A stretch of 64,000 nt of DNA from Clostridia bacterium. GTDB taxonomy: Bacteria > Bacillota > Clostridia > Oscillospirales > CAG-272. Shown piece after piece: positions 19,959-53,252 of the stretch (position 1 is the first letter of the stretch; every line of letters starts with the position of its first letter). The notes under the pieces were generated by a model, which ran no database searches, was not told the origin of the DNA, and worked only from the letters and a program-made list of their open reading frames with translations. Location of the stretch: assembly GCA_017621415.1 (NCBI GenBank), contig JAGATD010000057.1, positions 1,021-65,020 on the forward strand. The letters run 5' to 3'. The translations under genes were made by a program, and so were the position numbers.

Positions 19959-19982
19959 CAAAACAAAGAAAAAAGGTGTCTT

Positions 19983-35208: not shown

Positions 35209-35237
35209 TTGACTTCAAAAAAAACTTATGATATAAT
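35209..35237 (+). promoter_or_regulatory. Consensus sigma-A promoter of the 14-kb ABC/exoprotein operon
   Basis: TTGACT (35209-35214), 17 nt, TGaTATAAT (35229-35237). About 66-nt leader with GGAGG 10 nt before ATG 35304. Confidence 0.7.
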
Positions 35238-35303
35238 ACTTGTATATTATAAGGGCATGTGCGCCCTTTTGATATGAAAGTTTAATTTGGAGGAAATCAG
35301 CAC

Positions 35304-38300
35304 ATGAAAAAGTCGATCTTTATGAGAGTCGTTGCTATGATGCTTACCGTTGCGCTGATGCTTGGTGCCATTTCGGTTACCGCGTCTGCTGCGGGAATAT
35401 CCGATAGCATAGGCTCTTACAAGAACGAAAAGGGTTCGTCTCCTACGCTTGACGAGATGAAAAACCTCATGACGACTAAGACTTATGAGGATTACATTCT
35501 TGAAAAGCTCAGCGGTGAGAACGACCCTGCACGTACGCAAATCGCGATCAATACTTCATCTGCAGACAAGTTTGGAGACAACTTTACCAACGAGGTTAAG
35601 GTGTCTGACAGCGATGAGGTTCAGGCTTCTATCAAAGGAAGCTCCGCAAATTGGGAATCCTTTACCAAGGAGGACGGCGAGAAATCCTGGTTCCTTCCCT
35701 CGGTTAATCCTGACGGCAGCGCAGGTGTTGCGGAGTGGAGATTTGATGTGGATAAGCCCGGCTTCTACACAATCGAAATTGACTATTATGACTGCATTGT
35801 AGATGCAGACACCTACATTGATGAGAACGGCAATTTTGTTGAAATCAAAACAAAGAGCAGTGTCAGCGCAATCGAGCGCAAGCTCAGAATTGACGGTGTG
35901 GTTCCCTTTGATGAGGTTGGAAGCATAACCTTCGATAAGCACTGGAGATATGACTATGTCACAACTTCAGATCCTTACGAGGTTCCCGCAAGCGCTCGTC
36001 CCTTTACAGAAATCGGCTCCTATGCTGAATATGTTCAGATTGCCGAAGGCGAGGGTGCAGGTTACTATAAGTACGTAACCACCACCAAAATGGAGGGTGA
36101 CAAGATGATGCAGACCCTCACTACATATAAAATTAACCAGGACATAAACGGCAACTCTATGGCGCCGTCTGCTGTCGCTGTTTCACAGTGGTCCACCTAC
36201 ACCTGTAAGGACCCCTCCGGTTACAGCGAGGGCGCGCTTAAGTTCTATTTTAGTAACGGTCCTCACTCTATCTCTCTTGAGGCTATAAGAGAGCCCGTTA
36301 TTATTAAGGAAATAAGACTTGTGCCCGCCGAGGCTCCCAGCATTGAGTCCGAGTCATCGGGTAAAATGAGTTACAGCAATTATATTGCAGCTTACGACGG
36401 TGTTCCCACAATAAATGCTGCGCCTACCATTATTGAGGCAGAGTTCCCGGATCTTATTTCCGACTCCTCGGTTACTTCGACTAACGATAATACATCTGCA
36501 ATCACATATCCCATCAGCTCCAAGGCTCAGCTTTACAATGTAATAGGTGAGAACAGCTACAGCGCTATGGGTCAGTGGGCGGCATATAAGTTTACCGTAA
36601 GCGAAACCGGTCTTTACAAGCTTGGCGCAAGATTTAAGCAGGATACTCTTCAGGGTATGTTTATCTGCCGTGCTGTTAAGCTTGCCGGCGGTCAGTACGG
36701 TACTGTTCCGGATGCTCCCTTCGATGAGGCATACCGTGTGCGCTTCGGCTACGACGAGGAGTGGCAGTCCGAGTATATGGGCTTCTACAGCTACGAGTAT
36801 GATTCTGAAGGCAACAAGGTGCTTGACGATAACGGCAACCCTGTTCAGAACAAGACAGAGATCGAGCTTTATTTCGAGAAGGGCGTTGAATATACTCTCT
36901 ACTTCGAGTGCTCTCTCGGTGACCTTAAGGATTACATAAGAAGAGTAGAAACCGCGCTTGATGTAATCAACGAGTGCTACCTCAGAATACTTAAGCGTAC
37001 AGGCGCTGAGCCTGATAAGAACCAGGACTACAGCTTCCTTGATTATATGCCCGAGGTTCTTGTTAAACTTCTTGAGCAGTCAAAGGAGCTTACCAATGTT
37101 GCAGACGAGCTTGAGGCTCTTTGCGGCACAAACGGTTCTCATATAGCAACTCTTGACACTATTGCCCGTATCCTTACTCTTATGGGTTCTGACGGCGGTG
37201 AAAAGATTGCTGAAAATATGGCAAACCTTAAATCCTATCTCGGTACTCTCGGTACCTGGATAAACAGCTCTAAGTCCAGCTCGCTTATGCTTGATTCGAT
37301 TTACGTTGTTCCGGCAGACAGCGATGAGAATGCTATTCCTAACGCAAAAGCAAACTTCTTTGAGTCGATTTGGTTCGAGATTTCCTCCTTCATATATTCA
37401 TTCTTCACTGATTACGATAAGATGGGTCTTACCGAAGAAACAAGCGAGGGCGACGCGGCAGTAAGCGTTTGGCTCGCTATGGGTCGTGACCAGTCCCAGA
37501 TTTGGCGTTCTATGATAGACGCGACAGGCGGCTTCACCGATACATACGGCAAGGGTGTTGCTCTTAAGCTGGTTACAGCGGGAACACTTCTTCCCTCTAT
37601 CCTCTCGGGTAAGGGACCTGACGTTTACCTCGGTCTTAGCTCGGGTGAGGTTATTAACTATGCTATCCGTGATGCGATAATAGGTATCAGCGGAAATGCG
37701 GCTAATCTTACCGCCGAACAGAATGCGGTATTCACCAATTATTATTATATGGACGCAAACGGCAATGAAATCGTTCGAGAAAAGGCTCTCACTGCCGCCG
37801 AAATGGAGGCGCAGGGACTAATTTCTGTTTCCAACGGATACGATTATGCTACGAGAGAGGCGATATTTGCTCCTGCGGCAATGAAGACTCTCAGACTTTG
37901 CGATGTTGCCTACGGTATTCCTATGACAATGTCATTTGCTATGATGTTCTACCGTATGGACGTTCTCGGTAACCTTGGTGTTGAAATTCCCAAGACATGG
38001 GATGAGCTTATCGGCGCGCTTCCTGCTCTTCAGGCAAGTAATATGACGATAGGTGTATCTTATGTATCCGCTCTTGACTTCATGATTTATCAGATGGGCG
38101 AGAGTATGTGGAAGTATGAGAACGGCGATGAGTATGACTCCAGATGGGCAGGCGCTGAGATAAACCTCGACTCTAACATAGCCCTTGAGGCGTTTGAGAG
38201 AGTTTGTAGCTTCTACACCGAGCATTCTCTTCCTGTATCCTTCGATACCGCAAACCGTTTCAGAACCGGTGAAATGCCTATCACGGTAGGTGACTACATC

Positions 38301-38876
38301 AGTATTTATAACAGCCTTGTTGTATTTGCTTCTGAAATTGGCGGTCTCTGGCAGTTCGGCACACTTCCCGGTTCGGGCAAGGGTGAGACCTATAACAACG
38401 ATTCTCTTGCAAGCGTAACCGCAACAGTTCTTCTTAACGGTTGCCAGAAGAAGGGTAACGACACTCTTCTTGCGGCATGGCAGTTCGCTCAGTGGCAGAC
38501 CAGCCGTGAGATTCAGGCTAGCTACGGTAACAGCATAGTTGCTCTTATCGGTCCTGCCGCTAAGTACGAGACAGCGAACAAGCTTGCTATAAACGACCTT
38601 TCCTGGACAGCAAGCGAGAAGGCAGCTATCTCTGAGCAGATGGCAAATATGGACGCGATAGTTAACTATCCCGGCTCGTACATTATAGCAAGATATATGA
38701 AGTTTGCATTCCTTGATGCATACAATGACGGCACTCCTCCTCAGGAGGCTATGAAGCGCTATGTTGGTGCTATCAACACAGAGCTTACACGTAAGAGAGC
38801 AGAATTCGGCGACTTCCTCTTCAATGTTGAAGACGATCTTGAAGAAGGCCAGTCTGTTCCTAAGTTAGATCAGTAA
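35304..38876 (+). CDS. Giant extracellular solute-binding protein: signal peptide + two CBM-like beta-sandwich modules + helical linker + family-1 SBP domain
   Basis: 1190 aa. Signal peptide MKKSIFMRVVAMMLTVALMLGAISVTASA with no lipobox cysteine. Two modules carry the pattern AEWRFDVDKPGFYTIEIDYY and AAYKFTVSETGLYKLGARFK (about aa 100-340 and 375-540). The C-terminal 450 aa or so are SBP-like (VSVWLAMGRDQSQIW.., IPMTMSFAMMFYRMDVL.., KTWDELIGAL). Confidence 0.8.
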   Translation: MKKSIFMRVVAMMLTVALMLGAISVTASAAGISDSIGSYKNEKGSSPTLDEMKNLMTTKTYEDYILEKLSGENDPARTQIAINTSSADKFGDNFTNEVKVSDSDEVQASIKGSSANWESFTKEDGEKSWFLPSVNPDGSAGVAEWRFDVDKPGFYTIEIDYYDCIVDADTYIDENGNFVEIKTKSSVSAIERKLRIDGVVPFDEVGSITFDKHWRYDYVTTSDPYEVPASARPFTEIGSYAEYVQIAEGEGAGYYKYVTTTKMEGDKMMQTLTTYKINQDINGNSMAPSAVAVSQWSTYTCKDPSGYSEGALKFYFSNGPHSISLEAIREPVIIKEIRLVPAEAPSIESESSGKMSYSNYIAAYDGVPTINAAPTIIEAEFPDLISDSSVTSTNDNTSAITYPISSKAQLYNVIGENSYSAMGQWAAYKFTVSETGLYKLGARFKQDTLQGMFICRAVKLAGGQYGTVPDAPFDEAYRVRFGYDEEWQSEYMGFYSYEYDSEGNKVLDDNGNPVQNKTEIELYFEKGVEYTLYFECSLGDLKDYIRRVETALDVINECYLRILKRTGAEPDKNQDYSFLDYMPEVLVKLLEQSKELTNVADELEALCGTNGSHIATLDTIARILTLMGSDGGEKIAENMANLKSYLGTLGTWINSSKSSSLMLDSIYVVPADSDENAIPNAKANFFESIWFEISSFIYSFFTDYDKMGLTEETSEGDAAVSVWLAMGRDQSQIWRSMIDATGGFTDTYGKGVALKLVTAGTLLPSILSGKGPDVYLGLSSGEVINYAIRDAIIGISGNAANLTAEQNAVFTNYYYMDANGNEIVREKALTAAEMEAQGLISVSNGYDYATREAIFAPAAMKTLRLCDVAYGIPMTMSFAMMFYRMDVLGNLGVEIPKTWDELIGALPALQASNMTIGVSYVSALDFMIYQMGESMWKYENGDEYDSRWAGAEINLDSNIALEAFERVCSFYTEHSLPVSFDTANRFRTGEMPITVGDYISIYNSLVVFASEIGGLWQFGTLPGSGKGETYNNDSLASVTATVLLNGCQKKGNDTLLAAWQFAQWQTSREIQASYGNSIVALIGPAAKYETANKLAINDLSWTASEKAAISEQMANMDAIVNYPGSYIIARYMKFAFLDAYNDGTPPQEAMKRYVGAINTELTRKRAEFGDFLFNVEDDLEEGQSVPKLDQ

Positions 38877-38888
38877 AGGAGGCCAACC

Positions 38889-39848
38889 ATGTCACAAGCA
38901 GAAACTAAAACAGTTGAGAAAAACAGACCCCTAAGACGTGACGAAATGTCTAAGCTTCAGTGGACCTGGAAGGAAATGAAGAGAAATAAGACGGCCTACT
39001 TTATGCTGTTTCCTTTCCTCATTCTCTTTATAGTATTTACAGTTCTCCCCGTTCTTCTTTCTATGTTCTTCAGTCTGACAGACTTTAATATGCTTCAGAC
39101 TCCCAACATGAAGGGCCTTGATAACTATATCAGGCTCTTCTTGGAGGACGAGATATTCATTCTTGCGATACAGAACACACTTATATTCGCGTGTATAACA
39201 GGTCCTGTATCCTACATTCTTTCGCTCTTGGTTGCTTGGTTCGTAAATGAGCTTCCCCCCAAGATCCGCGCGGTAGTTACTCTGGTATTCTACGCGCCCT
39301 CAATTTCCGGTCAGGTTTATCTGATTTGGAAAACTCTGTTCTCCTCCGACTCTTACGGTTGGGCGAACGCAACGCTTATGGACTTAGGACTTATAACGGC
39401 ACCGATACTCTGGTTTGAGGATGCGGCTTACGTTATGGCGCTTTGTATCGTGGTTGCTCTTTGGACATCCCTCGGTACAGCATTCCTCTCGTTCATCGCG
39501 GGCTTCCAGACCGTTGACCGTTCTATGTATGAGGCGGCTGCCGTTGACGGAATTAAAAACCGTTGGCAGGAGCTGTGGTATATTACACTTCCCACAATGC
39601 GTCCTCAGATGATGTTCGGTGCGGTGCTCGCTATCACAAACTCTTTCGGCTTCGGAGGTGTTGTTACCGCTCTTTGCGGATTCCCGTCGGTTGACTATGC
39701 GGCGCATACAATAATGCACCATCTTGATGACTATGGCGGACAGCGTTACGAGATCGGTTACGCTTCGGCAATAGCGGTTGTGCTCTTTATTATGATGTTT
39801 GCCTCTAACATTCTTGTTAAGAAGGCGCTCTCGAAGGTAGGTGAGTAG
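38889..39848 (+). CDS. Carbohydrate ABC transporter permease (MalF/UgpA-like), pair 1
   Basis: 319 aa, 6 TM. EAA loop YEAAAVDGIKNRWQELWYITLPTMRP. Confidence 0.9.
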   Translation: MSQAETKTVEKNRPLRRDEMSKLQWTWKEMKRNKTAYFMLFPFLILFIVFTVLPVLLSMFFSLTDFNMLQTPNMKGLDNYIRLFLEDEIFILAIQNTLIFACITGPVSYILSLLVAWFVNELPPKIRAVVTLVFYAPSISGQVYLIWKTLFSSDSYGWANATLMDLGLITAPILWFEDAAYVMALCIVVALWTSLGTAFLSFIAGFQTVDRSMYEAAAVDGIKNRWQELWYITLPTMRPQMMFGAVLAITNSFGFGGVVTALCGFPSVDYAAHTIMHHLDDYGGQRYEIGYASAIAVVLFIMMFASNILVKKALSKVGE

Positions 39849-39851
39849 TAT

Positions 39852-40727
39852 ATGGCAAAGAAACTTCGTACCAGAGGACACAGAGTTGTCCTTAACCGTT
39901 CAGCCGGTGGTGACGCAGGTATAACCTTTATGCTCACCATCCTCGGTGTTATAATGTTCTTCCCGATGTACTACGTAGTAATTCAGTCTCTCAAGCCTCT
40001 TGACGAGCTGTTTATGTTCCCCCCCAGGTTCTATGTTATCAATCCTACATTTGATAACTTCTCAGAGCTGTTTACACTTATGAGCGACTCCTGGGTACCA
40101 TTCTCGAGATACATATTTAACACTGTATTCATTACTATCTGCGGTACTTGCGGAAACCTGGTTCTTGCTTCTATGGCGGCATACTCGCTTGCTAAGCTCA
40201 GATTCCCCGGCAGAAACGCAATATTCCAGATGATAGTTATGTCACTTATGTTCCACTCTACTGTTAACCAGGTAACCCACTTCATCATCCTTTCCGCATT
40301 CGGTTGGGTTGATACCTACCTCTCGGTTATTATCCCCTCAATGGCAGGTACCATGGGTCTTTACCTTATGAAGCAGTTTATGGAGTCGTCGGTACCGGAT
40401 ACGGTTCTTGAGTCTGCGCGACTTGACGGCGCAAGCGAATTCAGGACCTTCCTTATCATAGCAATGCCTATGGTTAAGCCCGCGTGGCTGACACTTATGA
40501 TCGAGTGCTTTAAGTCCCTTTGGAACTCGGGAGCATCAATTTATATCCACTCCGAGGAGCTTAAAACCTTTAACTATGCGATTAACCAGATCGTAACAGG
40601 CGGTATTGCCCGTTCGGGCGCCGGCGCCGCAGCGATAGTAATTATGATGATAGTTCCTATCGGTGTATTCGTTCTTAACCAGAGCCAGATCATTGAGACC
40701 ATGGGCTCTTCGGGTATGAAAGACTAA
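39852..40727 (+). CDS. Carbohydrate ABC transporter permease (MalG/UgpE-like), pair 1
   Basis: 291 aa, 6 TM. EAA loop LESARLDGASEFRTFLIIAMPMVKP. 3-nt gap from the previous gene. Confidence 0.9.
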   Translation: MAKKLRTRGHRVVLNRSAGGDAGITFMLTILGVIMFFPMYYVVIQSLKPLDELFMFPPRFYVINPTFDNFSELFTLMSDSWVPFSRYIFNTVFITICGTCGNLVLASMAAYSLAKLRFPGRNAIFQMIVMSLMFHSTVNQVTHFIILSAFGWVDTYLSVIIPSMAGTMGLYLMKQFMESSVPDTVLESARLDGASEFRTFLIIAMPMVKPAWLTLMIECFKSLWNSGASIYIHSEELKTFNYAINQIVTGGIARSGAGAAAIVIMMIVPIGVFVLNQSQIIETMGSSGMKD

Positions 40728-40741
40728 TTAAGGAGGCAGCA

Positions 40742-43735
40742 ATGAAAAATAGATTAGCTAAAATATTGATTCTGTCGCTCGTTGCGTTGTTGCTTTTCGG
40801 CAGCTTCACCTCCTCAGCGTATGAGTCTTATGACACTTATACCTATTCAATAGACGGAAAGCCTCTGGCTTCTCCTCACGCATTTACTCCCGAGCCCGAT
40901 ACTTATGATTCTAAGAGTATGGGACTCCTTGACGGTAACTATTGGCATTACGACTCAACCGGTGATGCTGTTATTTGGCCTCAGAAGGAGGTCAGCGCGG
41001 GATTTGAGTTTGTGTCTCCTCTTACATACAGCATGAAAGAAGACGGCACAGGACTTCTCGTTTCCTCTTACAAGGTTGACGAATCGGTTATCGATACTAT
41101 TGTAAGCATTCGCGAAGCATTCTCTGCGGTATACGGAGATCCTAATTCTAACAGTACTGTTAAAATTACCATACCTGTTGAGGATGTGGTTTACTCCGGT
41201 AACTCCTATGTAGAGCTTGACAATCTTTTGAAGCATGTCAACAGCCTTATTTTCGAAAGGGTTAAGGCTGCAGGTGAGGGTAAAAAGGTTACCTTAGCCG
41301 CAATTGATTATGCTTCGGTTTATCAGTCTGTTTACGATCAGCTCGGTTTTATGAGCGCAAGGGTTGCTATCCCTGAGGAAGTAGACGGTATTCCTGTTGT
41401 GGGAATAGCCGACGGTGCCTTTGCGGTTCCTGCGGTTGACGAATCCTGGTCTGATGTTAAAAAGGAAGTTTGTGAAAAGCTTTATAAGGATGTACTTGCT
41501 CAGATAGTTGGAATTCAGATTCCCGAGAGTGTTAAAACAATCGGCGCTTCTGCATTTGGCGGTACAACAGGTCTTACAACCGTATATTATCTTGGCGAAA
41601 ATGTGGCAGATTGGAACAAGGTTTCCTTTGATAGAAAAACCAATGCGTATTTTGCGAGAGCAAGTGTGTATTGCTATTCCGAATCCGAAAGATTTGGCAA
41701 TCTTGCTCTTGATAAAGCAGGAACGGCAGATATCGTGTCTGACGAGGACGGAAACCTTTATATTGCCGATAAGCCCAACAACAGAATTGTAATTCTTAAG
41801 GCTAATGACCTTAAGGTTATGGGTGTTATAAGCAACTATATTGACGGAAACAATAAGGACAGAGTTCTTAATTCTCCCTCCGGTGTTTATGTAACCAATT
41901 CCAAGCTTATGGTTGACGGTTCAAGCCGCCAGATATATGTTTGCGATACAGGTAACAAGAGCATAGTTGTATTTGATGAAAACTACAATTATATCAGAAC
42001 AATAGAGCAGGCACCTATTGCGGGTATGCTTGACGAGGGTGAGTTTGAGCCCAGCGCCGTTGCGGTTGATAAGTACGGCAGAATATTTGTTGTTTCCAGA
42101 ACCTGTTACAAGGGCATTATGGTTCTTTCAAGCGATGGAACCTTCACCGGATTTATCGGTGCGCAAAAGGTTACCACCGACTTTATGGATCAGATTTGGA
42201 AGAGCTTCCAGACGCTGGAGCAGAAGCAAAACTCTATTCTTCAGCTTCCCGAGCCCTTCAATAACCTGACAGTTGATGAAAACGGATTTGTTTACGCAAC
42301 CATCAGCTTCACAAAAGCTTCAGATCAGACACAGCAGCAATTAGCTCTTAAGTCAAAGCAACCTGCTTACTCTCCTGTTAAAAAGCTTAACTCCATGGGT
42401 GTTGAGATTATGAAGCGTAACGGCTTCTTCGATCCCGGCGGAGAGGTTATTGACACACTTTCTGCACAAAAGCAGGAGGTTTCTAAGATAATCGACGTGG
42501 CTATAGGAGACGAGGGCTCTTGGACAATACTTGACAGCTCAAGGCAGAGAACCTATACATATGACAAAAACGGTAACCTTTTGTTTGCATTTGGTAACAC
42601 CGGAGACCAGCTTGGTAACAATGCGTCTTGTATAGGAATTGCATATCAGCCGGTATATAATGAAGACGAAACAAACTATGAGGACTACAAGTACAATCTT
42701 GTAATGCTTGACAGCTCGGAGGTCGGTTGTTATGTTACTGTGTATAAGCCTACCGAGTATTGCGATATGATCATGAATGCTTTGCATAATGAAAATGACC
42801 ATAAATTCAGCGATACGATTAATTACTGGCAGGACGTTCTGACCCGTAACAACAACTTTGACCTTGCCTATATCGGTATAGGAAAAGCCCTTTACCACCT
42901 TGGTGAGTACGATGAGGCTATGGAGATGCTTTCCAGCGCATACGAGACCGAGTATTATGCTCTCGCATTTGCTGAGGTTCGTAAGGAATTTATTTCCAAG
43001 TTTATGGTTCCTCTTATTGTAGCTGTTCTCGCACTTATCGTGCTGTTCTTCAAGTTCCTTGGCTATGCCAAGAAGAGAAATAAGGCAACATCGCTTAAGG
43101 TTGGTAAAAAGACCTACGGCGAAGAAATGCTTTATGTGTTCCATCTTGTGTTCCATCCCTTCGACGGCTTCTGGGACCTTAAGCATGAAAAGCGCGGATC
43201 GGTCAGAGCGGCATCAACAATTCTCGGTATTACAATTGTAGCCTTCTTCTATCAGGCTATCGGTACCGGATATATGCACAATCCTAAGGGCGACTATTCT
43301 ACCGTATTTGTTCAGATAATCGCGGTAGTGGTTCCCGTTGTTCTTTGGATTGTAGGCAACTGGTGTCTTACTACGCTCTTTGACGGTGAGGGTAGCTTTA
43401 AGGATATTTATATCGCAACCTGCTATTCACTTGCTCCTCTTCCTTTGTTTGTAGTTCTTTCTACAGTGCTTTCAAACGTACTTACTGTTACAGAGGGCTC
43501 AATCCTGACTCTTCTTGTATCTCTCGGATACGTTTGGGTAGGACTTCTTCTGTTCTTCGGTATGGTGGTAACGCACGATTACTCAACCGGTAAGAACGTT
43601 ATCACAACACTCGGTACTATAGTTGCTATGGCGGTTATTATGTTCATTATACTCCTGTTCTCCAGCCTTGTAATGAAGATGGCAACCTTCCTTATCACAC
43701 TGTTTACTGAGATATTTAACCGTATTTTTACTTAG
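40742..43735 (+). CDS. Exported LRR(BspA-like)/NHL beta-propeller/TPR protein with C-terminal Yip1-like polytopic membrane domain
   Basis: 997 aa. Signal peptide. BspA-type LRR segments (IPEEVDGIPVVGIADGAFA, IQIPESVKTIGASAFGG). Repeated NHL-like blades (GNLYIADKPNNRIVIL, QIYVCDTGNKSIVVFD, GRIFVVSRTCYKGIMVL, GFVYATI, GNLLFAFG). TPR-like helix pair (LAYIGIGKALYHLGEYDEAMEML). One TM, then 5 TM preceded by FHPFDGFWDLK. Confidence 0.75.
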   Translation: MKNRLAKILILSLVALLLFGSFTSSAYESYDTYTYSIDGKPLASPHAFTPEPDTYDSKSMGLLDGNYWHYDSTGDAVIWPQKEVSAGFEFVSPLTYSMKEDGTGLLVSSYKVDESVIDTIVSIREAFSAVYGDPNSNSTVKITIPVEDVVYSGNSYVELDNLLKHVNSLIFERVKAAGEGKKVTLAAIDYASVYQSVYDQLGFMSARVAIPEEVDGIPVVGIADGAFAVPAVDESWSDVKKEVCEKLYKDVLAQIVGIQIPESVKTIGASAFGGTTGLTTVYYLGENVADWNKVSFDRKTNAYFARASVYCYSESERFGNLALDKAGTADIVSDEDGNLYIADKPNNRIVILKANDLKVMGVISNYIDGNNKDRVLNSPSGVYVTNSKLMVDGSSRQIYVCDTGNKSIVVFDENYNYIRTIEQAPIAGMLDEGEFEPSAVAVDKYGRIFVVSRTCYKGIMVLSSDGTFTGFIGAQKVTTDFMDQIWKSFQTLEQKQNSILQLPEPFNNLTVDENGFVYATISFTKASDQTQQQLALKSKQPAYSPVKKLNSMGVEIMKRNGFFDPGGEVIDTLSAQKQEVSKIIDVAIGDEGSWTILDSSRQRTYTYDKNGNLLFAFGNTGDQLGNNASCIGIAYQPVYNEDETNYEDYKYNLVMLDSSEVGCYVTVYKPTEYCDMIMNALHNENDHKFSDTINYWQDVLTRNNNFDLAYIGIGKALYHLGEYDEAMEMLSSAYETEYYALAFAEVRKEFISKFMVPLIVAVLALIVLFFKFLGYAKKRNKATSLKVGKKTYGEEMLYVFHLVFHPFDGFWDLKHEKRGSVRAASTILGITIVAFFYQAIGTGYMHNPKGDYSTVFVQIIAVVVPVVLWIVGNWCLTTLFDGEGSFKDIYIATCYSLAPLPLFVVLSTVLSNVLTVTEGSILTLLVSLGYVWVGLLLFFGMVVTHDYSTGKNVITTLGTIVAMAVIMFIILLFSSLVMKMATFLITLFTEIFNRIFT

Positions 43736-43755
43736 TGCGGGAGGTGTAAATTACT

Positions 43756-46700
43756 ATGAAATTTAATAAAATATTGTCATCCGCACTTGTTTTGGTAATG
43801 CTTCTTTCAAGCATTATGGCGGTTATCCCCGTAAGCGCATCGGCAGCTGATAACAAGCAGGTCGTTGTGAATATGGGAGAGGTTGATCCTGCTAAAAACA
43901 GCAGCGATTACCTTGCAAAGTTTGTAAAGGAAGAATACCTCAATTACAGATATTCCACTGCTGAAGAAATGCTTAAGGAAGAGCTTGAAAAGGGTAATCT
44001 TGACTCTGTATCAGCCGGCGGGTATATCCTTTATATCAATAGATACACAGGCTTTGTATTCTATCAGAACACAAAAACCGGTCAGATACTTACAAGTAAT
44101 CCCACCGACCCCGGAACATCTGGCAGCAGCCTTGACTATTCTGTACTCAGCCAGATCGATATCGACTATAAGGACGTTTCGGATTCTTCCAGCATTGTTC
44201 CTCTGACTTATAAGAGCCTTGAGCAGCTTGAGAACGGATTTGCTCTCTCTCTGTCGCCTATCGCAACTCAGCCTGACGGCAGAGCCGGAATTTCTGTCAA
44301 GTACACCTTGGGTGAAAACGCGGCAAATTACCGTGTTCCCAAGTATATCACCGAGGCTGATTTCAGAGACCACATTGTAAATCCTATGTTTAAGAAGATT
44401 GCTGCTGCTGTAGAGCAGTATTGCGGAGATGTAAGCTTTGACAGCGACCTTAGCGATAATGATGATATCTTCTATCAGGGATATTATGACGGCGGTGTAA
44501 TAAACAGAAAGCTTAATGTTATATCTGCAAATGCCGCAGTTTATGCCAGCGCAGCAGGAAAGATCATTATTGACAAGTATGTTAAGGCTATAAACGACGT
44601 GTTCTCGGCTTACGGATACACTTCATCTGCCGCTGCATTGAAGTCAGGCAACCAGACTCTTCTTACCGAGGTTCCCGTTCTTAGAGACGGTGTGAATGTT
44701 TACAGCATCAAGAATAATAACACAACAACATACAAGCTTGCGAACAACGCGCTTGTTGATATTCTTGGTGATGATTATACCAAGGATGACGCAGCTGAGG
44801 ATTTCGCAGCTACCGGATGCCTTAAAAATGAGGATATAAACGTAGCAAGCTTCGTTGTTTCTATCAACTATACTCTTAGTCCTGATGGCGAGCTTTACTA
44901 CGAGATTCCCATGAGCGCTCCTTATTTTGTAAACAATAACCCCAACTTCTCAATTGTTTCCTTGAAGCCTCTCAGATACTTCGGCGCGGGTATTAAAACA
45001 AATGAGGGATACATCTTCTTCCCCGACGGAAGCGGAACTGTTGTAAACTTTGATAAGATCAACACTATTCAGGCAGACTACAACTCAGCAGTTTACGGAA
45101 ATGACTACGGTTATTCTTCTCTTGACCCCACCAGAGCTCACTTTGAGCAGGTAACTATGCCTGTGTTTGGTATAGTTAACGAGGTTAAAGCAAATGCTGC
45201 AACTGCGTCTCTTGAAAATGTAGAAACTATCACCAACGGCTTCTTTGCGATAGTTGAAGAGGGCTCAAGCCTTATGAACCTTTCTTTCAACGGTTCGTCG
45301 CACAAATATATATCTGCGGCAGCGGTATATAAGCCTCACCCCATGGATATCAGAGACCTTTCTGAGACTCTTTCGGCAGGCGCCAGCGGAAAGTATTTTA
45401 TCGTTTCCGAGGCTAAGTATGAGGGTAATTACAAAACCAAGATAGTAATGCTCCGTGATGAAAAGCTTGCAGGATTTGAACCCGCAGCTTATGAGCCCAC
45501 CTATGTAGGTATGGCTAACTGCTATAGGGATTATCTTTTGAACAAAGGTATTATCGGACAAAATAACAATAATACCAAAAATGATATTCCTCTTTACATA
45601 GAGGTTCTTGGAGCTATGGACGTTACTCAGAAGATTCTCTCTTTCCCTGTGGTTATGTCTACTCCTCTCACTACATTTGATAATGTTGCTACAATGTACT
45701 CCGGCTTTGCTGAGTTGGGTGTAAAGAATGTTAACTTCCGTCTTACCGGCTTTGCTAACGGCGGTATGGCTGCAACCTATCCGGTAAAGGCAAGTTGGCA
45801 GAATTCCTTGGGCGGAAAGAAGGGACTCGAGAACCTTGTTGATGAAGCCGAGGAGATTAACGCTAAGAATGACGGCTCAAACTTGGGCTTGTACCCTGAT
45901 TTTGATTTCCTTTATATCCATAATACCGCACTCTTTGACGGTGTAAGCTATAGAGGAACCGTTGCTGTCATGGTTGATAACAGATATGCATCAAAGCAGT
46001 CCTTCAACGCAGTGCTCCAGCTTTACGAATCAATATTCGCAATGGTAGTTTCTCCCGATTCCTATGACGGTCTTTACGATAAGTTTAATAAAGACTACTC
46101 GAAGTACGGCCTTACAGGTCTTTCGGTAGCAACTCTCGGTTCAGAGCTTAACTCGAACTTTGATATCGATAATTCCATCAACCGTGAGTCGGCTCTCGCT
46201 TATACAAAGAGCCTTCTCGGAAGAATTTCTGAAGAGTATTCTGTTATGACAGACATTGGTAATGTTTACGCAATGAGATATGCTGACCATGTGCTTAACG
46301 CGCCTGTCGACTCCAGCCATTACAAATATTCTTCATATACCGTTCCGTTCTACGGTATGGTATTCCACAGCTATGTTAATTACGCAGGTTCTCCCATCAA
46401 CTATTCCGGTTCTCCTGACTACAATATTCTTCGCGCTATTGAAAACGGAGCGAACCTCCAGTACATTCTTTGCTATGAAAACACTAACTATCTTAAGGCA
46501 GATGCTACTCTTTCTAAGTATTACGGTGTTGACTACAAGAACTGGAAGGATATAATCGTTAAGCAGTACAATCAGCTTAATGCAGCTATAGGCGATGTTC
46601 AGGATAACATTATAACCGATCACAGACCTCTTATAGCTGAGAGAGTTGTGGACAGATACGAAATGTATTCTAATTACTCGGTTCTTATTAACGAATTTGT

Positions 46701-47304
46701 TGAACATGCAGAAACGAAGTTTGAGGCAGAAATTTCAGCTATCGCAGCCGATCTTCGTGCAAACGGAGGATTTGAGGGTAAGACCGGTCTTTGGGTTAAT
46801 ATCGACATTAACTCTGTTGAAGCGGGAATACTTAAAGCGCTTAACATAACAACAGCACAGGCTAAATCCTATAATCTTAATACCTCTGAGCTTAAGCTCT
46901 TCGGTATTGACGGTGAGAGTCAGTCGCTTTATAACGTAATTCTCAGAGTTGCAAGACTGTTCGTAGAGAAGTTTGAGGCAGCTTATCCCGAAGATGCTAA
47001 CAGCTATAAGATCAATCTTTCTGCTGAAACGGTTGAGTACAAGTCCAAGTTCAAGTTTGAAACAACATCTTATGCTGTTGATAAGAACTATGAGACCACA
47101 TCTTACACCTGCAGCAACAACAATGTTGTTATGGTAACTTATACCGATGCTGATACAGGCGCCGCGACAATATTCTTTATCAACTTTAACACATATGATG
47201 TAAAGCTTAAGCTTGATACAGAATTCTATCCCGGAATTGAAAAGCTTGTAGATGACAAGGGTTACTTTACCGTTGAAGCAACGGATTATGTAAAAATTAA
47301 GTAA
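43756..47304 (+). CDS. Large secreted protein of unknown function (1182 aa)
   Basis: Signal peptide MKFNKILSSALVLVMLLSSIMAVIPVSASA. No lipobox, no LPXTG, no C-terminal TM. No catalytic motif I can recognise. From memory it resembles proteins annotated as DUF5696, but this is unverified. Confidence 0.7.
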   Translation: MKFNKILSSALVLVMLLSSIMAVIPVSASAADNKQVVVNMGEVDPAKNSSDYLAKFVKEEYLNYRYSTAEEMLKEELEKGNLDSVSAGGYILYINRYTGFVFYQNTKTGQILTSNPTDPGTSGSSLDYSVLSQIDIDYKDVSDSSSIVPLTYKSLEQLENGFALSLSPIATQPDGRAGISVKYTLGENAANYRVPKYITEADFRDHIVNPMFKKIAAAVEQYCGDVSFDSDLSDNDDIFYQGYYDGGVINRKLNVISANAAVYASAAGKIIIDKYVKAINDVFSAYGYTSSAAALKSGNQTLLTEVPVLRDGVNVYSIKNNNTTTYKLANNALVDILGDDYTKDDAAEDFAATGCLKNEDINVASFVVSINYTLSPDGELYYEIPMSAPYFVNNNPNFSIVSLKPLRYFGAGIKTNEGYIFFPDGSGTVVNFDKINTIQADYNSAVYGNDYGYSSLDPTRAHFEQVTMPVFGIVNEVKANAATASLENVETITNGFFAIVEEGSSLMNLSFNGSSHKYISAAAVYKPHPMDIRDLSETLSAGASGKYFIVSEAKYEGNYKTKIVMLRDEKLAGFEPAAYEPTYVGMANCYRDYLLNKGIIGQNNNNTKNDIPLYIEVLGAMDVTQKILSFPVVMSTPLTTFDNVATMYSGFAELGVKNVNFRLTGFANGGMAATYPVKASWQNSLGGKKGLENLVDEAEEINAKNDGSNLGLYPDFDFLYIHNTALFDGVSYRGTVAVMVDNRYASKQSFNAVLQLYESIFAMVVSPDSYDGLYDKFNKDYSKYGLTGLSVATLGSELNSNFDIDNSINRESALAYTKSLLGRISEEYSVMTDIGNVYAMRYADHVLNAPVDSSHYKYSSYTVPFYGMVFHSYVNYAGSPINYSGSPDYNILRAIENGANLQYILCYENTNYLKADATLSKYYGVDYKNWKDIIVKQYNQLNAAIGDVQDNIITDHRPLIAERVVDRYEMYSNYSVLINEFVEHAETKFEAEISAIAADLRANGGFEGKTGLWVNIDINSVEAGILKALNITTAQAKSYNLNTSELKLFGIDGESQSLYNVILRVARLFVEKFEAAYPEDANSYKINLSAETVEYKSKFKFETTSYAVDKNYETTSYTCSNNNVVMVTYTDADTGAATIFFINFNTYDVKLKLDTEFYPGIEKLVDDKGYFTVEATDYVKIK

Positions 47305-47318
47305 GGAGGGACGCTAAA

Positions 47319-48305
47319 ATGAGTAATAATGTAAAATTAACTACAGAAAAAAAGTCGCCTTTAGATTTTTTAAAGCATATATTTAGGCGCAGAGCGTCTC
47401 TTGATGCAAGAAAGGCAAGGGCGGGCTACGTATTCGTGCTCCCCTTCCTCCTCGGTATAGTTCTGATATACCTTCCTATACTTATCGACTCCCTTTGGTT
47501 CAGCTTCAGCCAGATTTCGGCAACGAGTGACGGTACAGGCAGACTTAACATTGTGTCTGTTGGTTTTGAAAACTATGTTAAGCCCTTTAACACACCGGGA
47601 TTTACCGAGGCGCTTCTCGCAGGACTTCAGCAGCTTTTGTTTGAGGTTCCCGCAATTATCGTATTCTCTCTGTTTATTGCGGTCGTTCTTAACCAAAAAA
47701 TGCTCGGTAGAGCTATGTTCCGTGCGATATTCTTCGTTCCTGTTATTATATCCACAGGTATTATGATGGACTTCTCCGCAGGCGGTCAGAATGATATGTC
47801 AGGCGCGGTAGGCGGAGAAACAAACTCCGGTACAGGCGAAGGCGGAGCAAGCGAAATTATTTCGGTTCTTGACGTTCAGCAGCTGTTTGCAAGCATGAAA
47901 ATAGGCGGAGAGCTTGTTACATACGTTGTAGGAATAGTAAATAACGTGTATAACATTATCAACTACTCCGGTGTTCAGATGCTTATTTTCCTTGCCGGTC
48001 TTCAGTCTATATCTCCTTCGATATATGAAGCCTGCCGTATAGACGGCGCTACAGGTTGGGAGACATTCTGGAAGATTACATTCCCTATGATATCTCCTAT
48101 GATTCTTGTAAATGCTGTATACACGGTTATCGACTCCTTTACCAGAACCAACAACCCGGCGATGCGATTTATTCAAAATGCCTTTGCTCTGCAGCCTGAA
48201 ATGTCAACAGCGATGTATTGGATGTACTTCCTGATTATTGCTTTGATAATAGTAGTTGTTGCGGGAATTGCATCATCCTTCGTGTTCTATCAGAGAAAGG
48301 ATTAA
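47319..48305 (+). CDS. Carbohydrate ABC transporter permease (MalF-like), pair 2
   Basis: 328 aa. EAA loop YEACRIDGATGWETFWKITFPMISP. Unusual Gly/Ser/Glu-rich insert AGGQNDMSGAVGGETNSGTGEGGASE (about nt 47769-47859). Confidence 0.88.
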   Translation: MSNNVKLTTEKKSPLDFLKHIFRRRASLDARKARAGYVFVLPFLLGIVLIYLPILIDSLWFSFSQISATSDGTGRLNIVSVGFENYVKPFNTPGFTEALLAGLQQLLFEVPAIIVFSLFIAVVLNQKMLGRAMFRAIFFVPVIISTGIMMDFSAGGQNDMSGAVGGETNSGTGEGGASEIISVLDVQQLFASMKIGGELVTYVVGIVNNVYNIINYSGVQMLIFLAGLQSISPSIYEACRIDGATGWETFWKITFPMISPMILVNAVYTVIDSFTRTNNPAMRFIQNAFALQPEMSTAMYWMYFLIIALIIVVVAGIASSFVFYQRKD

Positions 48306-48318
48306 GGAGGTGAGCTTA

Positions 48319-49407
48319 ATGGAATCAACAAAAACAACAATAACAAAAGAAACAAAAAATAAGATTCAGGTTGATTATGAAGGTAAGCTCTCCACCAAAG
48401 AGCGTTTGCTTAACAAAATCAAGGCATCCAACACCTGGATAACGGCAATCGTAAATGTGTTTAAGTTTATACTGATGCTTGGTGTATCTTTCGTAATTAT
48501 TTATCCCTTTATCACCAAGATAGCAGGTTCATTTATGTCGCCTAACGACCTGGCCGACGTTACAGTATCTCTTATTCCCAGAGATTTTAACATAGACCAG
48601 TATAAGTACATAATCCAGGATAACGGATATTTCTTCCACATAGATGACCTTGGACAACAGCACCTTGGCGCATTCTTCCACACACTCTTCCTTTCGCTTA
48701 TCTGCGCGGCAATTCAGACTATGGTAGCCTGTCTTGTAGGATACGGTATTGCCAAGTTCAAGTTTAAGGGTAATGTTGCTGTAATGGTTGCCGTTGTGGT
48801 AACAATGATTATTCCTCACAGCGCGCTTCAGCTCGCTTTCAGACAGCACTTTATTTCCTTTGATATTGCGCATGTAATGTCTACGGGAAATATGGGTATT
48901 ATCCAGACTTTAACAGGCGGCAAGAATATCGAGCTGATAAACACCTATTGGCCGTTTATCATAATGTCGCTTGGCGGTATAGCCTTTAAGAACGGTCTTT
49001 ATATCTATATGATGCGTCAGTTCTTTAAGGGTGTTCCCGATGAGCTTGAGGAGTCTGCGTATGTTGACGGCTCGGGTACATTCCGTACCTTTGTTCAGAT
49101 CATACTTCCTCTCTCCGTGCCTATGATGATAACAATATTCCTGTTCTCATTCTCATGGCAGTGGACAGACCAGTTCTATACAAATCTGTTCTTCGAGGGC
49201 GCAGACGCACCTTGGACAATGCCTAAGATCGTATCGCTTCCTGCTTCTCTTGAAATTCTCTATACAGGTCACCCTGTACTCAAAATGTTTACTACAGTAG
49301 TAGAGAACACAGCCAGCCTTATGATCATACTTCCTCTCGTTATTATGTACCTCTTCTGCCAGAAGTACCTGGTACAGGGTATCGAGCGTTCGGGTCTCGT
49401 AGGCTAA
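48319..49407 (+). CDS. Carbohydrate ABC transporter permease (MalG-like), pair 2
   Basis: 362 aa. Start moved to ATG 48319 (MESTKTT) behind AAGGAGGTG. EAA loop EESAYVDGSGTFRTFVQIILPLSVP. Long polar N-terminal extension. Confidence 0.88.
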   Translation: MESTKTTITKETKNKIQVDYEGKLSTKERLLNKIKASNTWITAIVNVFKFILMLGVSFVIIYPFITKIAGSFMSPNDLADVTVSLIPRDFNIDQYKYIIQDNGYFFHIDDLGQQHLGAFFHTLFLSLICAAIQTMVACLVGYGIAKFKFKGNVAVMVAVVVTMIIPHSALQLAFRQHFISFDIAHVMSTGNMGIIQTLTGGKNIELINTYWPFIIMSLGGIAFKNGLYIYMMRQFFKGVPDELEESAYVDGSGTFRTFVQIILPLSVPMMITIFLFSFSWQWTDQFYTNLFFEGADAPWTMPKIVSLPASLEILYTGHPVLKMFTTVVENTASLMIILPLVIMYLFCQKYLVQGIERSGLVG

Positions 49408-49416
49408 GCTTACGCT

Positions 49417-49519
49417 GAATGGCTATATCTTAGCGCATCTTTCGTCAGCGGTTCAATCGCCGTATTCGTATACGACTTCATTCACCGCTAACAAAATCTG
49501 TACCAACCTATAGCCATTC
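49417..49519 (+). other. Structured 3' UTR element (long-range inverted repeat) between the operon stop codon and its terminator
   Basis: 11-bp arms GAATGGCTATA (49417-49427) and TATAGCCATTC (49509-49519) enclose inner helices AGCGGT/ACCGCT (49447-52/49484-89) and CGTAT/ATACG (49461-65/49470-74). Confidence 0.45.
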
Positions 49520-49544
49520 CCATAGTGGAAAACCAAATAAAATT

Positions 49545-49575
49545 AGGAGAGCTCTCTTGAGGGCTCTCCTTTTTT
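49545..49575 (+). terminator. Rho-independent terminator of the 14-kb operon
   Basis: Stem AGGAGAGC/GCTCTCCT (49545-49552/49563-49570), then TTTTT. Confidence 0.75.
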
Positions 49576-49686: not shown

Positions 49687-49715
49687 TAGACAAATAACCG
49701 TGAATATCTTATAAT
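49687..49715 (+). promoter_or_regulatory. Promoter of the PocR/AraC regulator gene
   Basis: TAGACA (49687-49692), 17 nt, TATAAT (49710-49715). Confidence 0.5.
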
Positions 49716-49744
49716 CGTTATAGAAAGAACAAACGGAGGGAACT

Positions 49745-50563
49745 GTGAGAACATCATTTAATATTGAAAAGCTTTCGGCATTTTTAAAAAGCTTTTATAC
49801 CGTTACGGGCATAAAAATTTCTGTTTTTGACGATGAGTTTAACCACATAATCGAATATCCCGCGCCTATGATAGAATACTGTTCTTTAATTCGTCGCACC
49901 GAGCAGGGGACTGAAGGCTGTCGTAACTGCGATATTGCCGCATTTAGAGAAGCAAAGCGCAGAAGAGGACTTTATATTTATACCTGCCATGCGGGAATGA
50001 CAGAGGTTGTTTCTCCGATAATGCTAAATGACGGAATTTTGGGTTATGTAATTTTATCTCATATGTTGCCAAAGGAGACTTTCGATTCAGCAGTTGAATA
50101 TGCCCTGGGCAGGGCAGAGAGCTACGGAGTCAGCAGATGCGAGGCGCTTCCCGCCATAGAAAAAATGACCCCTACAGATTATGAAAAAATTGAGGCTGCA
50201 TCAAGACTCCTTGATGCAATCACAACCTATTTAAGAGTGACAAATTGGGTAAGCTGGCGCAACGACGATCTTGCATATTCTATTTCAAAATATATAGATG
50301 AAAATTTAGGCTCACACTTGAATACTGAAAACCTATGCAACGTGTTTTATATTTCCAGAACAAAGCTTCACCAAATATCAACCACTGCATACGGAGTAAG
50401 CATTACAAAATACATTCTTGATAAGAGAATGAAAAAGGCAAGAGAACTTCTTCGTATGGGAAAATCGGTAGAGAGTGTTGCCGAGGAGGTAGGATTTTCA
50501 ACTGCAAATTATTTTAGCAAGGTCTTTCACCGCGAGTGCGGTATACTCCCAAGCAAATTCTGA
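49745..50563 (+). CDS. AraC-family transcriptional regulator with N-terminal PocR-type sensory domain
   Basis: 272 aa. GTG start behind GGAGGG. The PocR-like Cys-containing region is CSLIRRTEQGTEGCRNCD..YTCHAGMTEVVSPI. C-terminal AraC HTH (VAEEVGFSTANYFSKVFHRECG). Confidence 0.85.
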   Translation: MRTSFNIEKLSAFLKSFYTVTGIKISVFDDEFNHIIEYPAPMIEYCSLIRRTEQGTEGCRNCDIAAFREAKRRRGLYIYTCHAGMTEVVSPIMLNDGILGYVILSHMLPKETFDSAVEYALGRAESYGVSRCEALPAIEKMTPTDYEKIEAASRLLDAITTYLRVTNWVSWRNDDLAYSISKYIDENLGSHLNTENLCNVFYISRTKLHQISTTAYGVSITKYILDKRMKKARELLRMGKSVESVAEEVGFSTANYFSKVFHRECGILPSKF

Positions 50564-50619
50564 GTTAATGCAAAAATGTTCAATAATAAATAAATATGTA
50601 CAGTGTTTTTAATCACCGG

Positions 50620-50648
50620 TTGACACAATAAGTTTTTTTTGATACCAT
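50620..50648 (+). promoter_or_regulatory. Candidate promoter of the isomerase/epimerase pair
   Basis: TTGACA (50620-50625), 17 nt, TGaTACCAT (50640-50648). Confidence 0.45.
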
Positions 50649-50682
50649 AAAATTAACATTGATATATTAAAGGAGTGTTATA

Positions 50683-52080: not shown

Positions 52081-52096
52081 ATTAAAGGAGAAACTT

Positions 52097-52978: not shown

Positions 52979-52984
52979 AAAAAC

Positions 52985-53026
52985 ACAGCGGAAGCTCCCT
53001 AATTTGTGAGCTTCCGCTGTATTTTT
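52985..53026. terminator. Bidirectional terminator shared by the epimerase gene (+) and the aromatic operon (-)
   Basis: Perfect 13-bp stem ACAGCGGAAGCTC/GAGCTTCCGCTGT with a 10-nt loop. ATTTTT on the + strand, and an A-run upstream that gives a U-run on the - strand. Confidence 0.85.
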
Positions 53027-53043
53027 GCTAGAAAACTTGGTAT

Positions 53044-53117
53044 TTACAAAACCTCAGCTATATCGTAGCATAGCCTTCCCCTTGGGGAAGGGGGACCGCC
53101 GTGGCGGTGGATGAGGT
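53044..53117. repeat. Tandem repeat unit A: pseudo-copy of the aroF 3' end plus a double-hairpin module
   Basis: TTACAAAACCTCAGCTATATCGTAGCAT, followed by hairpin CCTTCCCC-TT-GGGGAAGG (53074-53091) and hairpin ACCGCC-GT-GGCGGT (53095-53108). Confidence 0.85.
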
Positions 53118-53152
53118 ATCTATGATTACCGCCAGATAAGAGTTGCAAGTAA

Positions 53153-53226
53153 TTACAAAACCTCAGCCATATCGTAGCATAGCCTTCCCCTTGGGGAAGG
53201 GGGACCGCTTTAGCGGTGAATGAGGA
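53153..53226. repeat. Tandem repeat unit B: pseudo-copy of the aroF 3' end plus a double-hairpin module
   Basis: Near-identical to unit A, 109 nt downstream. Hairpin 1 at 53183-53200. Hairpin 2 ACCGCT-TT-AGCGGT at 53204-53217. A third partial copy (53253-53280) is the true aroF 3' end. Confidence 0.85.
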
Positions 53227-53252
53227 TTGACCTATTCAACTGTTATTGTCAA

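Follow-up and report, generated by a model that had tools for sequence, protein, structure and literature searches.

The stretch of DNA considered here, a window of 64,000 nucleotides from the genome of a Clostridia bacterium (order Oscillospirales, contig JAGATD010000057.1), carries a seven-gene operon on its forward strand, which encodes two pairs of ATP-binding cassette (ABC) permeases, a giant secreted binding protein, a membrane-anchored exoprotein with a Yip1 domain and a secreted protein of the Pfam family DUF5696. We regard these genes as an ancient composite cassette, widespread in the Bacillota, for the extracellular capture and import of glycans, in which two CUT1-type modules would operate with exoproteins held by the Yip1 protein; we give this reading a probability of about 0.55. 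The CUT1 importer and the Gram-positive utilisation locus are both known, and it is the obligatory accessory parts that are novel. The original prediction, which was made from the letters of the sequence, had proposed an integrated machine for capture, processing and import. That proposal was reasonable and remains the best explanation, with three amendments: the missing ATPase gene is nothing unusual, the processing activity is unproven, as no catalytic pair is evident across the DUF5696 family, and the locus, which is widespread, comprises two ancient modules.

Two permease pairs and the modular build of the cassette

The permeases fall into two complete pairs. Pair 1 consists of permease 1 (38889..39848, + strand; 319 amino acids (aa); MalF/UgpA-like), which has the EAA loop YEAAAVDG and matches Pfam BPD_transp_1 and a UgpA-like NCBIfam profile, and permease 2 (39852..40727, +; 291 aa; MalG/UgpE-like; EAA loop ESARLDG), which is likewise matched in Pfam and NCBIfam. 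Pair 2 consists of permease 3 (47319..48305, +; 328 aa; MalF/UgpA-like; YEACRIDG), with matches in the same two collections, and permease 4 (48319..49407, +; 362 aa; MalG-like; ESAYVDG), whose assignment draws on Pfam, NCBIfam, its ribosome-binding site and public gene calls. BPD_transp_1 scores above the Pfam cut-off in all four proteins, each contains an EAA-x3-G motif, and their best NCBIfam matches are of the UgpA/GlcT or UgpE/MalG types. The order MalF/UgpA-like then MalG/UgpE-like occurs twice, as genes 2 and 3 and as genes 6 and 7. The four EAA loops listed in the original prediction are all present in the translations, and its picture of a CUT1-like importer locus with two complete permease pairs and one giant binding protein is borne out by Pfam, NCBIfam, PDB and Foldseek matches.

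Between the two pairs, identity is only about 25%, and each permease of the window is closest to the permease in the same position of the Butyrivibrio and Paenibacillus loci described below. Permease 1 shares 57% of its residues with its counterpart in Butyrivibrio and 42% with that in Paenibacillus; permease 3 is 41% and 33% identical to the respective second-pair permeases, but only 25% identical to permease 1. Since the pairs are so dissimilar and positional orthology extends from Clostridia to Bacilli, the most plausible reading of the four permeases is that they form two translocators of ancient divergence, placed in two separable modules. For the same reasons, the duplication of the permease pair appears to be older than the divergence of Clostridia and Bacilli, unless the cassette moved as a unit. 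Two translocators sharing one binding protein, or else a non-canonical assembly, had been suggested earlier; the two pairs and the single giant binding protein stand, while two separable modules take the place of one exotic assembly.

Permeases 3 and 4 are longer (328 and 362 aa) than permeases 1 and 2 (319 and 291 aa), and permease 3 contains a Gly/Ser-rich insert (GGQNDMSGAVGGETNSGTGEGGASE). The extra length may correspond to bigger extracytoplasmic loops that dock a partner.

Close relatives of the locus, which form the clade of the window, were collected by scanning with a DUF5696 profile, with one genome retained per species, and the open reading frames (ORFs) of the resulting 80 loci were searched with profiles of the seven window proteins. 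All 80 come from uncultured members of the Clostridia, Eubacteriales or Oscillospiraceae in the guts of ruminants, horses and humans. Where the contig reaches far enough, upstream genes for the giant binding protein and pair 1 were found in 59 of 60 loci, and downstream genes for pair 2 in all 77. Compared with the window, permease 2 has a median identity of 88% across the clade, permease 1 of 83%, permease 3 of 64% and permease 4 of 61%.

Two cultured carriers emerged when annotated plasmids were searched at the protein level. Butyrivibrio fibrisolvens D1 has a gene for a glycoside hydrolase (GH) of family GH43 directly upstream of the cassette, its NHL and YIP1 parts are separate genes, and two ordinary binding proteins follow downstream; Paenibacillus cellulosilyticus carries the same seven-gene cassette as the window. 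The DUF5696 proteins of these carriers are WP_073386913.1 and WP_110042929.1, respectively. Both accessory proteins thus co-occur with double permease pairs in about 80 metagenome-assembled genomes of gut Clostridia, in Butyrivibrio and in Paenibacillus, a pattern for which the original prediction had proposed a gene-neighbourhood search.

A metagenome scan with a broader DUF5696 profile yielded 80 diverse loci at 24-37% identity, and these reveal which parts of the cassette are constant. The succession Yip1-DUF5696-pair 2 is kept in 61 of the 63 diverse loci with room for it. Of 40 loci, 28 have the giant binding protein and pair 1, the remaining 12 being four-gene forms without them, and in two loci (L116 and L144) these parts are permuted to a position after pair 2. 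Behind pair 2, ordinary binding proteins of about 430-460 aa, confirmed by Pfam for those tested, occur in 6 of 9 diverse loci of the four-gene form and in 14 of 28 of the seven-gene form. The flanks of the diverse loci are rich in genes for LacI regulators and for GH130, GH43, GH26, GH10, GH5, GH67, GH113, GH127 and an apiosidase-like protein, and one 213-kb metagenome contig, Ga0134096_1000020, carries three DUF5696 cassettes (L108, L129 and L133).

Judged by gene order, the cassette is built of two modules: module B, which includes the NHL/TPR-Yip1 protein, DUF5696 and pair 2, is the invariant core, and module A, composed of the giant binding protein and pair 1, is a frequent add-on, as a rule joined on the upstream side. 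Because of these modules, the flanking LacI and plant-glycan enzyme genes, the binding proteins and the multiple copies, the cassette family can be placed in carbohydrate utilisation. It is widespread on this survey, not unique to the genome of the window, and looks like a platform reused for different substrates.

In L133, one of the three cassettes of the 213-kb contig, the genes for Yip1, DUF5696 and permease 4 are broken into several ORFs; the copy is probably decaying, or else the contig is misassembled there.

The three large exoproteins

The first gene of the operon (35304..38876, +) encodes a giant secreted binding protein of 1190 aa with a signal peptide, recognised from PDB sequence matches, the domains of its homologues, a structural model and Foldseek. 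Two beta-sandwich modules (residues ~129-341 and ~375-537) are followed by a four-helix bundle (~541-656) and a MalE-like domain (~660-1170). The protein itself has no Pfam match, and its N-terminal half gave only insignificant ones (Inhibitor_I42 and Golvesin_C, E = 0.05-0.1). Its C-terminal region (~820-1110), in turn, aligns with sugar-binding proteins of the PDB (5ysb, E = 5e-6), and its homologues carry SBP_bac_1 (PF01547) or SBP_bac_8 (PF13416). In the model, which has a predicted local distance difference test score (pLDDT) of 70, the MalE-like domain resembles the oligosaccharide-binding proteins 7c0x, 5yse, 6dtr and 5f7v at a Foldseek template modelling (TM) score of about 0.70; the Foldseek matches are dominated by this binding domain and not by the beta-sandwich modules. 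Across the clade, the protein has a median identity to the window of 50%. The signal is of the signal-peptidase-I type, with neither a lipobox Cys nor an LPXTG motif in the window protein, and the lipobox is missing from 104 of 108 giant binding proteins. On its sequence, therefore, the giant binding protein does not have the anchor, lipoprotein or other, that is expected of binding proteins in monoderm cells.

The fourth gene (40742..43735, +) encodes a membrane-anchored exoprotein of 997 aa, the only one of that kind in the cassette, which is assigned through Pfam matches to Yip1, NHL and tetratricopeptide repeat (TPR) families and through PDB matches to NHL propellers and TPR proteins. A signal peptide is followed by variable leucine-rich repeats (LRR) of the BspA type up to residue ~300, an NHL beta-propeller (~330-650), TPRs (~680-737), a transmembrane helix and a Yip1 domain with five transmembrane segments (801-969). 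The match to Pfam Yip1 (PF04893; E = 2.6e-14, 53.9 bits against a cut-off of 28.6) covers residues 801-969 and nearly the whole profile, and NCBI names the identical protein "YIP1 family protein". The label LRR/NHL/TPR/Yip1-like, given in the original prediction, is accordingly sound for NHL, TPR and Yip1, with the LRR part (LRR_5) resting on a weak match. The core of about 730 aa is 60-65% identical across the clade, with a median identity to the window of 58%. NHL and YIP1 are separate adjacent genes in Butyrivibrio and in about 20 metagenome loci, and are fused elsewhere. Of the protein's parts, the Yip1 membrane domain has the highest identity to Butyrivibrio (42%), the ectodomains reaching 26-30%.

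The fifth gene (43756..47304, +) encodes a secreted protein of 1182 aa that was characterised by Pfam, a structural model, Foldseek and conservation analysis. It had been listed as unknown, yet it is assignable to Pfam DUF5696 (PF18952; E = 1.3e-126, 424 bits against a gathering cut-off of 25.6, residues 359-979), a family with 4,725 representatives at 50% identity. It has an ordinary cleavable signal of the signal-peptidase-I type; the window protein has no lipobox and no LPXTG motif, and the lipobox is missing from 155 of 161 DUF5696 proteins. It is the fastest-evolving component of the cassette, with a median identity to the window of 38% across the clade.

The model of DUF5696, built with 38 homologues (pLDDT 82.4; predicted TM score 0.79), comprises an N-terminal domain, a helical insert, a beta-sandwich (366-566), a (beta/alpha)8 barrel (~583-948) and C-terminal helical and beta-sandwich domains. 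Its top Foldseek matches are the GH129 structures 5opq, 8rzk, 5wzp and 5wzr (E = 9e-20 to 1e-15, TM 0.55-0.68), among which 5opq gives the best E value (9e-20) and 5wzr the best TM score (0.68); GH101 (5a55), GH31, GH97, GH36 and GH13 rank after them. At the sequence level, no GH profile was found: Pfam at E values up to 10 returned nothing beyond DUF5696 itself, and a profile search against all PDB sequences at E values up to 1 gave no match. According to the model, DUF5696 has a fold of the GH129/GH101/GH31 type, and the locus encodes a glycosidase-like protein. The earlier statement that the operon contains no recognisable glycosidase thus holds for the sequence and fails for the modelled fold (Foldseek E ~1e-19).

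Within the N-terminal domain, outside the Pfam model, residues 95-116 follow the pattern N-x3-G-x3-Y-x5-G-Q-I-L-T-S-N-P, which is invariant in the 38 homologues, and G109, S114 and P116 are also kept in Butyrivibrio and Paenibacillus. This TGQILTSNP motif could be an interaction surface.

Proposed mode of action, its alternatives and related systems

In the mechanism that we favour, a shared MsmK-type ATPase encoded elsewhere would energise both translocators, and the Yip1 protein would hold the binding protein and DUF5696 at them. DUF5696 would bind, and possibly cleave, a glycan, the products of which would pass to the binding protein and to both permease pairs. The tethering role is inferred because the secreted proteins have no lipid or wall anchor, while the Yip1 protein, which consists of protein-interaction scaffolds, is the sole exoprotein with a membrane anchor.

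As to the energy source, a search of the 64-kb window, and of 10-kb flanks around some 80 related loci, found no MsmK/UgpC-type ATPase gene, and the only ABC ATPase in the window is fused to an exporter-type membrane domain; supply in trans, as had been predicted, agrees with this result. The ATPase of a CUT1 importer may be encoded elsewhere and shared, and Firmicute CUT1 systems share MsmK/MsmX in this manner, so that a cassette without an ATPase gene is ordinary and no oddity. A ugpC/msmK-type gene lies directly upstream of the cassette in Paenibacillus cellulosilyticus, and ABC ATPase genes of 345-348 aa follow it in two diverse loci (L136 and L164; Pfam-confirmed in L136). Other ATPases near the loci were set aside: the pairs of about 256 and 236 aa beside many of them are part of a neighbouring Liv-type amino-acid transporter and are not MsmK-like, and neither are the ATPases of about 500 aa, which lie on the opposite strand.

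Several observations weigh against the composite-cassette reading. Some of them concern DUF5696. Four barrel carboxylates (E616, D717, D728 and D852) do not vary among the 38 close homologues; across 88 diverse sequences, however, near-universal conservation of a carboxylate is confined to E896 and to two beta-sandwich residues, D424 and D450, and the barrel shows no catalytic carboxylate pair shared by the whole family, although alignment error at the ~25% identity of this set may hide conserved residues. At position 801, just past the predicted strand beta4, 64 sequences have Asp and 21 have Asn, among them every sampled member of the window's clade except one (L027, Asp). Catalysis by DUF5696 is, on these alignments, doubtful. 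To this must be added that the tethering step is pure inference, that no binding protein follows pair 2 in the window's clade (0 of 54 loci), and that the flanks in this clade are of a housekeeping nature (mnmA upstream in 42 loci, a Liv-type transporter downstream), with no neighbouring genes for carbohydrate-active enzymes (CAZymes) and no conserved regulator. Such a setting fits a foraging locus less well.

Two assignments of active-site residues were considered and abandoned. D717 with D852 was dropped as a catalytic candidate, as these residues are not kept in Butyrivibrio, in Paenibacillus or in the 88 diverse sequences, and D801 as a beta4 nucleophile was rejected as a firm call, since Asp and Asn alternate at this position in several lineages.

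The most credible alternative, which we nevertheless consider unlikely, is that two independent importers share the operon without forming a super-complex. Module A would import one oligosaccharide, pair 2 would use an orphan binding protein encoded elsewhere, DUF5696 would be a free secreted glycosidase, and the role of Yip1 would be unrelated. The separability of the modules speaks in its favour, module A being missing from 12 of 40 diverse loci and permuted in two, as do the low identity of the pairs and the ordinary binding proteins that trail pair 2 as its own in many diverse loci. It does not readily account for the unbroken association of Yip1, DUF5696 and pair 2, for a seven-gene order that is near-invariant in the clade and recurs in Butyrivibrio and Paenibacillus, or for the lack of any small binding protein after pair 2 in the loci of the clade. 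Furthermore, secreted proteins devoid of an anchor argue for retention by a partner.

We rank second among the alternatives, and hold to be rather improbable, the possibility that DUF5696 is a non-catalytic protein of glycosidase fold which, together with Yip1, forms an extracytoplasmic cap or receptor on pair 2, by analogy with 4F2hc and rBAT; in the window's clade it may then replace the binding protein. The dearth of a family-wide carboxylate pair in the barrel is what this idea would predict, and the strongest universal motif, Y-x-F-x-P-D-G-S-G, which includes D424 and D450 and is found in 88 of 88 sequences, lies in the beta-sandwich, as expected of a conserved interface or binding site. 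The constant position of DUF5696 between the Yip1 gene and pair 2, the clade's lack of a binding protein for pair 2, and the better conservation of the Yip1 membrane domain than of the ectodomains also point this way. Conversely, the clade-invariant carboxylates are compatible with a subfamily-specific active site, the rapid evolution of DUF5696 is that expected of a substrate-specific enzyme, and the possible alignment error mentioned above applies here as well. In addition, no type I ABC importer is known to operate in the absence of a classical-fold binding protein.

A housekeeping role in the window's clade, for example the recovery or remodelling of the cell's own envelope glycopolymers instead of foraging for dietary or host glycans, would suit the syntenic core-chromosome site, the neighbourhood poor in CAZymes and regulators and the near-invariant order across the clade genomes of the DUF5696 scan, but it is very improbable, given that distant copies occur in plant-glycan contexts with LacI or AraC regulators, that several copies per genome, such as the three on Ga0134096_1000020, resemble paralogous utilisation loci, and that nothing ties the proteins to envelope synthesis.

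The composite-cassette reading also has a bolder form, which is speculative and which we consider unlikely. The Yip1-anchored protein and DUF5696 might represent a new class of obligatory extracytoplasmic subunits of type I importers, that is, a membrane-tethered cap docking on pair 2, which would either feed glycan fragments directly to the translocator or serve as a receptor without catalysis. For the window's clade, this cap would take the place of a dedicated binding protein, with the giant binding protein and pair 1 joined in one super-complex.

The cassette resembles the CUT1 importers (MalEFGK2 of E. coli, MsmEFGK and RafEFG with shared MsmK of streptococci, and the Listeria cycloalternan system Lmo0181) in its MalF/MalG-like permeases with EAA loops and in its MalE-fold domain. 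It differs from them in having two complete permease pairs in one operon, a non-lipidated binding protein about three times the normal size with two beta-sandwich modules and a helical bundle, and, obligatorily ahead of pair 2, a Yip1-anchored propeller/TPR protein and DUF5696.

The Gram-positive polysaccharide utilisation loci of Roseburia and Eubacterium rectale likewise place a transporter beside glycan-active proteins (PMC5320581). Distant copies of the cassette resemble such loci, as they adjoin GH43, GH26, GH130 and GH10 genes and LacI or AraC regulators, and combine the elements that define a utilisation locus, namely a transporter, a recognised CAZyme and a regulator. The window copy differs in that no sequence-recognisable CAZyme or regulator lies inside the operon and its neighbours are housekeeping genes; its transporter is present, its CAZyme is such by fold only, and a PocR/AraC regulator occurs downstream under its own promoter, in close relatives only. 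The Yip1 and DUF5696 parts are not known to occur in the Roseburia and Eubacterium rectale loci.

DUF5696 shares, in its model, the beta-sandwich and (beta/alpha)8 barrel of GH129, represented by the alpha-N-acetylgalactosaminidase NagBb of Bifidobacterium bifidum (5wzn/5wzr) and the 3,6-anhydro-D-galactosidase ZgGH129 of Zobellia (5opq/8rzk), and of the GH101 endo-alpha-N-acetylgalactosaminidases (5a55). Against these two families the E values are 9e-20 to 1e-15 and the target-normalised TM scores 0.60-0.68, with a structure-based identity of 8-15%. Unlike these enzymes, DUF5696 has extra N- and C-terminal domains.

A precedent for the Yip1 component is found in YknWXYZ of Bacillus, an ABC transporter system in which the accessory protein is a member of the Yip1 family (PMC4887032). 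Both systems encode a Yip1-family membrane protein together with an ABC transporter; however, YknYZ is a MacB-type exporter, whereas the cassette is a type I importer, and YknW is small, without propeller or TPR ectodomains. The likeness is limited to the Yip1 domain and is one of family only. For DUF5696, a parallel can be drawn with the SLC3 heavy chains. The GH13-like ectodomains of 4F2hc and rBAT are accessory subunits of eukaryotic heteromeric amino-acid transporters, and in 4F2hc the catalytic residues have been lost. The parallel is no more than an analogy, since sequence, transporter class and domain of life are unrelated.

Literature searches on DUF5696, on Yip1 with ABC transporters and on DUFs related to GH129 or GH101 returned no description of the cassette, and the YknW precedent was the only relevant result. 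The earlier view that the two large accessory proteins have no described role agrees with this, and the locus does not correspond to an already described utilisation locus in that literature: its genes are generically annotated, and no functional description was found.

In every locus examined, DUF5696 travels with the Yip1 protein and a permease pair. The size of the family (about 4,700 clusters at 50% identity) and the constancy of its partners suggest a common but unstudied route of glycan uptake in Firmicutes of the gut, rumen and soil. Its elucidation would assign a function to a large DUF, possibly as a new glycosidase family or a new class of pseudo-glycosidases, would give bacterial Yip1 domains a role, and would account for the retention of non-lipidated binding proteins by monoderm cells. 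It also bears on whether type I ABC importers can be assembled into multi-translocator surface machines, a Gram-positive counterpart of Sus-like systems. The cultured carriers, Butyrivibrio fibrisolvens D1 and Paenibacillus cellulosilyticus, make the cassette open to direct testing.

Expression signals and genomic surroundings

The seven + strand genes (35304-49407), identified from the ORF listing and translation of the window, are tightly packed, with intergenic spacings of 12, 3, 14, 20, 14 and 13 nt in the 5'->3' direction. They are preceded by a sigma-70-type promoter, TTGACT-17-TATAAT with an extended -10 TG (35209..35237, +), which scores 11/12 and is the best site in an 18-kb scan, and are followed by an intrinsic terminator (49545..49575, +), the strongest of the terminator scan, which consists of a hairpin at 49545-49570, with an 11-bp stem including 6 G-C pairs, and a T-run after it; both elements were also read directly in the sequence. 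Ribosome-binding sites of the GGAGG type precede six of the genes, and a weaker GGTGAG precedes the second permease. The last gene was listed as 48256-49407, but its realistic start is the ATG at 48319 (362 aa), because a GGAGG motif lies ahead of it and the same gene call is made on near-identical public contigs. This operon anatomy makes it most likely that all seven genes are carried on one mRNA from the promoter at 35209. The promoter, the seven same-strand ORFs with gaps of 3-20 nt and the single terminator had all been named in the original prediction and were recovered as described; only its claim of an AGGAGG-type site for every gene needs correction, at the second permease.

The 5' leader between the promoter and the first ribosome-binding site contains a short G+C-rich hairpin, AAGGGC-ATGTGC-GCCCTT, at 35251-35268, followed by TTTTGAT, which could be a stabiliser or an attenuator-like element. 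A second promoter-like site scoring 11/12, TTGACT-16-TATAAT, occurs at 46529-46556, where it falls within the DUF5696 gene and some 790 nt ahead of permease 3; such a site may reflect chance or may allow pair 2 to be expressed separately. In the scanned region, 47 promoter-like sites were observed versus 35.5 expected.

The window is a piece of core Bacillota chromosome, with genes for PolC, dxr, rseP, ispG, a class 3 fructose-bisphosphatase and the shikimate pathway, and cysteine desulfurase and mnmA genes lie upstream of the operon. A mobile element or recent transfer was rejected, as the GC content of the operon (0.444) is close to that of the window (0.448) and its position is syntenic.

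Downstream of the operon, a separate unit (49687-52978) with its own promoter-like site (49687-49715) encodes a PocR-sensor/AraC regulator (49745-50563), a FucI_C-like isomerase (50683-52080) and a xylose-isomerase-like TIM-barrel protein, the gene of which ends at 52978. This unit adjoins the cassette only in the closest relatives (L001 and L003) and not across the clade. In L001, a near-identical public contig, about 3 kb of extra DNA (19224-22370), with an HTH_3 gene and a gene for an 815-aa Flg_new/PKD surface protein, sits between the TIM-barrel gene and the gene for 3-deoxy-D-arabino-heptulosonate 7-phosphate synthase, where the window has a 275-bp spacer (52978-53253). The segment looks like a strain-level insertion or deletion.

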